A program made the position numbers and the translations under genes. Under the pieces are notes generated by a model. The model saw nothing but the letters and a program-made list of their open reading frames with translations, was not told the origin of the DNA and did not search any database. Positions 26,926 to 27,372 of a DNA stretch of 64,000 nt are shown piece after piece. Within the stretch, counting starts at the first letter, position 1. Every line of letters starts with the position of its first letter. The stretch is from Eledone cirrhosa (taxonomy: Eukaryota), in assembly GCA_964016885.1 (NCBI GenBank), contig CAXHJY010001315.1:1-64000 (forward strand), read 5' to 3'.

Positions 26926-27372
26926 TATATTAATAAGAGGAATTCCAACTTTGTCTGATTTACTCGTTTTATTTACAATCCTTTAAAATATATATAATGG
27001 TATTATAATGAAATAGTATGATAGAATATTAAATTCTAAGTGTTAATTGAACAAGTACTTTCATGCTTTCGCAATCTTCAGGTTCATGATATGTGGTGAC
27101 AGTCGAGTTTGCAATTTTCAACAGTTGAAAATTGCAAACTCGACTGTCACCACATATCATGAACCTGAAGATTGCGAAAGCATGAAAGTACTTGTTCAAT
27201 TAACACTTAGAATTTAATATTCTATCATACTATTTCATTATAATACCATTATATATATTTTAAAGGATTGTAAATAAAACGAGTAAATCAGACAAAGTTG
27301 GAATTCCTCTTATTAATATAATCTTCTATACACAATCATACACACCCGTGTATATCTACCTATCTATATCTA
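26926..27372. mobile_element. Short palindromic derivative of the PLE 3' end (arms 26926-27122 / 27124-27320, tail to 27372), with HHRs at 27048-27086 (-) and 27160-27198 (+)
   Basis: Matches 34090-34289 plus the tail seen at 28493-28545. Perfect inverted repeat centred on 27123, flanked by (TA)n. Confidence 0.92.

Follow-up and report, generated by a model that had tools for sequence, protein, structure and literature searches.

The palindrome at positions 26926-27372 of the window, by which we mean the whole 64,000-nt stretch of Eledone cirrhosa DNA that was analysed, is a real feature: its arms stop at one base of a Penelope-like element (+1 in our numbering, which is 34090 in the window and 27121 in the palindrome), only one arm carries a tail, and the two arms match in subfamily and in rare variants. 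It is probably a stub insertion, in which two arms were separately reverse-transcribed and ran off the 5' end of an RNA starting at 34090, a reading that we draw from sequence comparison. The insertion itself is of a known kind; what is new is the sharp positional rule, which we find in two families.

The two 197-nt arms (26926-27122 and 27124-27320) are perfect reverse complements around an unpaired A at 27123, which corresponds to 34092 (Table 1). The sense arm is identical to the 3' pLTR at 200 of 200 positions (34090-34289) and, tail included, matches the inverted copy at 28744-28493 with 99.6% identity over 252 nt. Because the two nucleotides 27121-27122 are compatible with both arms, this locus alone narrows the 5' end only to 34090-34093, and it is the genome-wide sample that places it at 34090. 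The context of +1, CATT/ACAG, provides a pyrimidine-purine step. The predicted RNA hairpin that starts at this base has a z of -2.3, and 8 of 200 shuffled sequences fold equally well. The hammerhead, found through a motif scan and folding, is composed of stem I (27160-27164/27194-27198), a core from 27165, a stem II of 3 bp and a palindromic stem III (27186-27193), and its cut is predicted at the boundary 27193/27194 (+73/+74); an Rfam search of the 64-kb window returned no family at gathering score. An AATAAA lies at +153, a weak signal in AT-rich sequence. The tail (27321-27372) has the same sequence as the 5' UTR before ORF1 and contains an AC-rich hairpin. Beyond the arms the flanks show no mirroring, and a target-site duplication cannot be told apart within the (TA)n tracts.

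Table 1. Features of the palindrome, its parent element and the neighbouring family B stub (window positions)
Feature	Position	Strand	Basis
Short arm, pLTR +4 to +200, ends in the (TA)n tract without tail	26926..27122	-	197-nt perfect reverse complement of 27124-27320
Long arm with tail and predicted hammerhead, reaching from +1 to about +252	27121..27372	+	matches to 34090-34289 and 28744-28493
Head-to-head junction, centre A27123, arms overlap by 2 nt	27121..27125	.	junction type in 16/50 genomic loci
Predicted 8-bp RNA hairpin starting exactly at +1	27121..27147	+	fold of -7.2 kcal/mol
Predicted minimal type I hammerhead, +40 to +78	27160..27198	+	motif scan and folding
Predicted mirror hammerhead in the short arm (core 27059-27081)	27048..27086	-	motif scan; arm symmetry
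Tail between short (+200) and long (+251 to +261) 3' ends	27321..27372	+	sequence comparison
Left (TA)n target tract	26885..26925	.	direct reading
Right (TA)n target tract	27373..27466	.	direct reading
Autonomous copy of nearly full length, from about +216 (5' end) to the short 3' end (+200)	30104..34289	+	sequence comparison
Inverted 5'-truncated partner of the long copy, long 3' end	28493..30106	-	sequence comparison
Predicted pLTR promoter of family A	33921..34090	+	three CCAAT boxes, TATAAAAG at 34059, +1 at 34090
Stub palindrome of family B, a Penelope family unrelated to family A (3879-nt unit), with the fold at that family's own +1	27574..28059	.	sequence comparison

The parent of the palindrome (family A) is, judging from its sequence, an endonuclease-bearing Penelope-like element with a repeat unit of 4202 nt, which was confirmed against a natural tandem copy at 99.9%. 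It has partial-tandem pLTRs, an inverted 5'-truncated partner, a one-sided tail and, by motif and fold, a minimal hammerhead motif in the pLTR. ORF1 (30170-31519, 476 codons) starts at +283 and is followed by an RT and GIY-YIG ORF (31426-33753, 775 codons), with profile matches to RVT_1 (E 2.9e-6; 27.6 bits, below its cutoff of 29.6) and to GIY-YIG (E 3.2e-6, above its cutoff). Instead of a single ORF there are thus two, overlapping in the -1 frame, and they are intact in the window and in 5 of the 14 other loci checked. Within the overlap (31426-31519), at about 31441-31447, the heptamer U UUU UUA occurs in frame; its T run is preserved in 39 of 40 matches among the fetched loci (overlapping loci being counted more than once), and no strong structure was predicted downstream of the heptamer. 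Given the -1 overlap and the heptamer, a programmed frameshift would be possible in an element class that is described as single-ORF. The GIY-YIG match is preceded by CNDNRCGTC, a CX2-5CxxC motif; in the available portion of PMC8557442, such a motif upstream of GIY-YIG marks the Neptune and Nematis clades, and by this cysteine motif alone the parent may be called Neptune-like.

The original prediction had placed the fold 31 nt behind the first T of a TATA-like box and below three CCAAT boxes, and the sequence confirms each of these positions. The first base of TATAAAAG is 34059, that is, the box lies at -31, and CCAAT boxes are found at -169 (33921, reverse), -130 (33960) and -93 (33997, reverse). 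The TATA-like box is preserved in the long arms listed, reading TATGAAAG in one copy and TATATAAG in another.

The rule becomes apparent when the other copies in the 3.0-Gb genome are considered. The genome was searched with exact patterns, so that all counts are lower bounds biased to young copies, and about 300 loci were fetched; the patterns differ in the share of older copies that they admit. Exact matches numbered 4071 for the pLTR 3' end, 1435 for +14 to +41, 675 for -45 to -20 and 130 for the ORF start. Across +1 the number of exact copies falls from 1435 to about 675, a drop of 53% where about 2.5% is expected from the decay (background truncation) along the rest of the unit. Using one design throughout (anchor, gap of 5-35, reverse anchor), we found at least 319 head-to-head junctions at +1 and 57 at the predicted hammerhead cut, against 5 in the control window between +1 and the cut and 1 in that just upstream of +1. 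These figures bear out the claim that the insert is not a random 5' truncation. The first 50 of the 319 junctions were fetched; of these, 39 have +1 as their 5'-most base, 3 have +2, 1 has +3, 6 have +5 and 1 has +7, and none extends upstream of +1, though the gap permitted that. The centres of other copies, which had been expected to pile up at 34087-34092, thus do pile up, at 34090-34093. The peak at the hammerhead is less sharp: among the 15 of its 57 junctions that were analysed, the 5'-most base is +72 in 1, +73 in 4, +76 in 8, +78 in 1 and +85 in 1, and the 8 at +76 are resolvable only to that base, the peak being blurred because a natural near-palindrome is present there. Near-palindromes lie at +5 to +17 and at +73 to +85, and they can attract junctions.

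A sample that was picked by 3' end only (the first 100 of the 4071 matches, or 74 loci) leads to the same base. It comprises 110 arms after removal of two duplicate loci and of half of a duplicated one; 57 arms start at -5 to +13, 8 at +70 to +85, 6 between these positions and 10 further down, and 29 run upstream. Many of the +1 ends have no inverted partner, and the +1 peak is therefore independent of fold-back. A depth step at 34090 is also visible in the contigs of two public runs, in one of which the inverted arm appears as a loose end at 34091; contig depth is not a copy number, and both runs may share the source of the assembly. In two related organisms (B and C), the 6 contigs that each has on the pLTR held no junction information. 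Our results suggest that palindrome centres could serve to map the start sites of Penelope elements in any genome without RNA. Separately, some arms end at +505 to +518 inside ORF1 (L112, L113, L211-L213, L244 and L266), which suggests a rarer third start site or 3' end.

A second family obeys a similar rule. Of the 152 matches to family B, 30 were sampled; 12 of these stop at 0 to +2 of TTCA+1CTG, 3 end within 10 nt upstream of +1 and 15 continue. The query started at +2, so ends further down fall outside this sample. The +1 of family B is initiator-like, with no TATA box and with no stem starting at +1 in the predicted fold. Family B, which is also present at 38762-38965, has a long-stem-II hammerhead, 3' ends at +198 and +285, and the same stub rule. 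Its arms in the neighbouring palindrome are perfect over 193 nt (27800-27920), and perfect arms in both neighbouring stubs indicate that both are very young. More head-to-head stubs, of other families, are found at 21221-21416, 21479-22118, 22140-22330 and 20015-20190; three of these four have opposite-strand hammerhead cores, and folds at 21281-21288 and 22212-22230 lie just before the core. The solo hammerhead-bearing end of a third family (26760-26885) is located directly left of the palindrome, and one TA tract holds several nested families. In the window as a whole, hammerhead core-motif matches number 22 where 2 are expected, and at 10791-15000 a 99-bp unit is repeated in tandem about 43 times, with 96-99% identity.

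The ends of the two arms offer clues to how they came to be joined. Of the 50 fetched loci, 45 combine a long with a short 3' end, 1 pairs a short arm with a long one that extends into the ORF, and 4 are unclassifiable; a long 3' end is accordingly paired with a short one in 46 of 46 classifiable pairs, and long/long and short/short pairs are absent (0 each). The many long/long pairs that BLAST end points had indicated were due to extension into TA tracts, and a motif test ruled them out. Among the 45 long/short pairs, 26 are nested, 13 are non-nested and in 6 both arms have the same first base. Since a cDNA that folds back on itself can yield nested pairs only, at least 19 pairs need two separately primed cDNAs. 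One-cDNA fold-back as the sole mechanism is excluded by the 13 non-nested and 6 equal pairs, and it is also contradicted by long pairs, L086 and the window's own element among them. At the same time, paired arms agree in subfamily and often in rare variants too, and in fate: 25 pairs are short-short, 9 long-long and 3 mixed, versus 15 mixed expected. These shared properties suggest that the two arms of a pair come from a single RNA, or from a single source. We consider it likely, from these end positions, that the two arms were separately primed from both sides of one cut in the (TA)n tract.

This picture agrees with work on an anole element. According to the available portion of PMC11167929, initiation occurs internally at two tail sites, both strands are cut and extended and a dimer is predicted; the enzyme requires RNA beyond its start; and no reads ended at the ribozyme cut, cleavage being unnecessary in vitro. 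In both of our families, a predicted stem enclosing the long start would likewise use RNA beyond the copied tail, a point in favour of the ordinary transcript as template. For family A this stem (+207-216 with +266-275) has a z of -1.28, which is not significant against shuffles, and no compensatory change was found in it; for family B (+228-235 with +316-323) the z is -3.0.

The formation of stubs may be pictured as follows. A dimeric enzyme of the element would prime at two internal sites (+200, and +251 to +261), which lie near the front of an ordinary pLTR transcript, and copying would reach the 5' end of the RNA after 200-260 nt. The two cDNA ends would then be joined head to head through microhomology of 0-2 nt or the addition of a few bases. 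Where the template is a hammerhead-cut RNA, shorter stubs folding at +73 to +78 would result. Because they have lost TATA and CCAAT, stubs would be dead-end by-products, comparable to an inserted strong-stop cDNA. The genomic data fit 5' and 3' pLTRs alike as the source of the stub templates.

The original prediction had interpreted the insert as the complete cDNA of a ~250-nt RNA running from the promoter to the tail. The fold at the predicted start and the inverted second arm stand, whereas a discrete ~250-nt template RNA is unsupported: with internal priming, any RNA from +1 would give a product of 200-260 nt, and stub size is thus no proof of a short RNA. Its further idea, that short non-coding ribozyme RNAs are retrotransposed in their own right, has fared less well. 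In its fullest form such RNAs, produced from solo or 3' pLTRs or from stubs, would be retrotransposed in trans in a SINE-like manner, which we regard as unlikely. Loci with promoter and tail (about 675) outnumber those with the ORF start (130), stubs make up the majority of arms, and non-autonomous retrozymes derived from pLTRs have been published (bioRxiv 10.64898/2026.07.22.740005, as far as its text is available), all of which would agree with a short RNA. A SINE-like lineage should nevertheless stand apart from the long copies, and among 257 arms (some loci counted twice) the main haplotypes are common to both: the commonest one accounts for 72 stub arms as well as for 20 long distal and 26 ORF-proximal ones, and long copies too include each of the three marker classes. 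Variants seen in stubs only amount to a few haplotypes of 7-8 arms and one deletion variant at three loci. This 39-nt deletion could mark a small lineage, but the three loci differ in subfamily markers, and recurrence fits equally. Moreover, stubs have the same two internal 3' ends as long copies; at one locus (L303) the partner of an arm from +6 to +200 is a full-length arm whose start is at +1; TATA and CCAAT are absent from stubs, which argues against self-propagation; and since stubs are not tandem and have one hammerhead per strand, they would release no circle. On this evidence it is more likely that stubs are by-products of internal priming on the ordinary transcript than a self-propagating RNA, and the stub itself is probably inert.

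Run-off requires that +1 be the end of an RNA, and a comparison of successive passages over this position is informative in this respect. In the 3'-end sample, 57 of the 86 arms that could stop at +1 on first passage did so (66%), compared with 8 of 42 (19%) on second passage at the upstream +1, where the other 34 run on seamlessly to scattered points (p 5e-7). It should be noted that the two samples were drawn with different patterns; the ORF-start sample comprised 74 matches in 70 loci, of which 64 were kept, 8 matches ending before +600 and 2 from one array being left out. When split by markers, first and second passage gave 42/51 versus 6/19 for old copies (p 1e-4), 5/8 versus 0/3 for intermediate ones and 10/27 versus 2/20 for young ones (p 0.047); a young subset defined by identity, a split that is biased against short arms, gave 9/25 versus 5/26 (p 0.22). 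The difference between the passages is thus weaker in young copies. Because the stop is unequal at the two passages, it looks like a property of the template molecule and not of a fixed sequence. Considering also the TATA box at -31 and the corresponding site in family B, the best reading of 34090 is that it is likely a transcription start. In 44 arms reaching +1, an untemplated G was found in 5, C in 8 and A in 3, the remaining 28 being explained by the other arm, and these arms show no clear signature of a cap-derived G before +1.

The opposing view holds that there is no start at 34090 and that the +1 hairpin stops cDNA synthesis on long RNAs, creating a truncation hot spot with fold-back. 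Self-priming has been proposed for such palindromes (PMC3846280, in its available portion), the 8-bp hairpin begins exactly at +1, near-palindromes are present at both peaks, and the 26 nested pairs are what fold-back predicts. A stop that is fixed in the sequence should, however, act equally on both passages, and fold-back does not account for the non-nested and equal pairs. The junction that it predicts, +1/+28, was seen (by eye) in 0 of 37 pairs of the 3'-end sample, and neither the position of the TATA box nor the peak of family B, at an initiator-like site without such a stem, fits it. We hold this view to be very improbable, and prefer run-off at the end of an RNA. Barely conceivable is the idea that the palindromes are fold-back artefacts of long reads or assembly, or products of DNA-level deletion within long insertions, between their inverted arms: palindromes form a familiar class of artefact and long inverted insertions are present in the genome, but the flanks past the arms are not mirrored, the long/short asymmetry is fixed, the depth step at 34090 is seen in the contigs of the two public runs (with the reservation on their source given above), and deletion would not halt at a single base in 39 of the 50 loci.

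If stubs are run-off products, the question arises how long copies regain a promoter. TATA and CCAAT are missing from any copy of an RNA that starts at +1, but the upstream +1 is passed by 34 of 42 full-length arms, which speaks for a circular template or a template jump. Long copies would likely derive mostly from templates without an end at +1, probably a unit cut by the hammerhead and circularised, or an end-to-end template jump, either of which would restore the promoter before the ORF. In the available portion of their paper, Cervera and de la Pena proposed a circular RNA template for copies of more than unit length (PMC4209133). The upstream and downstream pLTRs within an insertion mostly resemble each other more than any other copy. 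In 14 of 19 loci that have both copies, the downstream copy of the same locus is the best or second-best match of the upstream one (some tied), and in 6 of the 19 the two copies have locus-private variants in common; tandems formed by homing of a new copy beside an unrelated older one are disfavoured by these data. This kinship fits a circle, a jump and a multimeric RNA equally. Ten loci have a deletion of at least 22 nt between +61 and +112: 4 of these deletions start right at the cut, a fifth may do so, and 5 fit microhomologies elsewhere. In the three stub loci mentioned above, the 39-nt deletion starts at the ribozyme cut and, in two of them, is present in both arms; an intron on either strand was rejected as its origin, the junction letters being unsuitable (by eye). 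Stubs at L275-L281 (G000 C1, C5) carry internal deletions that run from exactly the predicted ribozyme cut to +111 to +113, in both arms at two loci. Taken as sequence patterns, the passing of +1, the kinship of the pLTRs and the cut-site deletions would fit a unit that the hammerhead cut at both ends before circularisation or an end-to-end jump. Linear long templates also exist, as 8 and 6 long arms stop at the upstream +1 or at the cut, respectively. Multimeric RNA from tandem arrays may be a further template for long copies; at L214-L216 (G000 C1, 97.37 Mb), at least three full units lie head to tail, a possible source of such RNA. A higher fall-off on the second lap was considered and dropped, first-lap ends also crowding within 650 nt of +1.

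We tentatively put forward, as a possibility that the data do not yet make the probable one, that the copies record three forms of template: the capped transcript (stubs at +1), the ribozyme-cut linear unit (stubs at +74), and a circle or end-to-end jump at the cut (long copies past +1). Reverse transcription would normally start only near the 5' end of the RNA, and the hammerhead would give access to the ORF and to a rebuilt upstream promoter. If true, the cycle would be LTR-like, with a ribozyme junction in place of strong-stop transfer. In LTR elements, minus-strand strong-stop DNA is primed near the 5' end of the RNA, the short cDNA stops at the start site, and it must be transferred to the 3' repeat for further synthesis. 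The stub differs in that it would be primed from nicked target DNA, at two sites and without tRNA, and in that the product is inserted head to head.

In the portions of the literature available to us, three matters are open: the formation of head-to-head ends, the role of the hammerhead, and the regaining of a promoter that is absent from the RNA. From hundreds of stubs, two probable RNA ends can be placed to the base, and counts of separately primed arms, of stops at +1 and the cut, and of long copies passing +1 separate the models. Our search, which covered mainly openly accessible papers, listed none that maps palindrome centres to a start site or a cut.

The following comparisons refer to the available portions of the cited studies. 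Pen2a_Av and other inverted-pLTR Penelope insertions (PMC3846280; PMC8557442) have the same head-to-head inverted 5'-truncated copy with a palindrome at the junction, the same tail at one end, microsatellite targets and a TATA/Inr predicted in the pLTR. Their palindromes were explained by self-priming, possibly with an antisense template, and truncation is variable, whereas the 5' ends in E. cirrhosa are fixed at two sites and many pairs lie beyond self-priming. In Drosophila virilis Penelope (Schostak et al. 2008, PMC2377424), the pLTR likewise contains the transcription start; the element requires a partial tandem, and the authors saw no obvious mechanism by which the pLTR is regenerated. 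The D. virilis promoter is internal and TATA-less, in contrast to the upstream TATA and CCAAT boxes of family A, which are lost in an RNA copy. The anole Poseidon element PAc, studied in vitro (Frangieh et al. 2024, PMC11167929), has the same two internal starts defining a tail, an AC-rich stem-loop, the same two-strand target extension, a predicted dimer and AT-rich targets. That study assumes a multi-copy mRNA, and the 5' ends of insertions are unmapped in its available portion; in E. cirrhosa the starts are in the 5' UTR, and the genomic ends mark +1 and the cut.

Penelope-like hammerheads (PMC4209133) are of the same minimal type I, in which helix III is palindromic and stem II is preceded by an unpaired base, and Schistosoma hammerhead pairs on opposite strands, 100-700 bp apart, resemble the stub. 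The circle was a tentative proposal in that study, to which E. cirrhosa adds positional evidence in the form of cut ends, cut-site deletions and arms passing +1. Finally, animal non-LTR retrozymes (PMC7229834; bioRxiv 10.64898/2026.07.22.740005), likely moved by Penelope enzymes, are like the stub short, non-coding, hammerhead-bearing and related to pLTRs. Retrozymes, however, are head-to-tail repeats with at least two hammerheads on the same strand and yield circles, whereas the stub joins its arms head to head, with a single hammerhead on each strand, and starts from the predicted start site instead of the cut.
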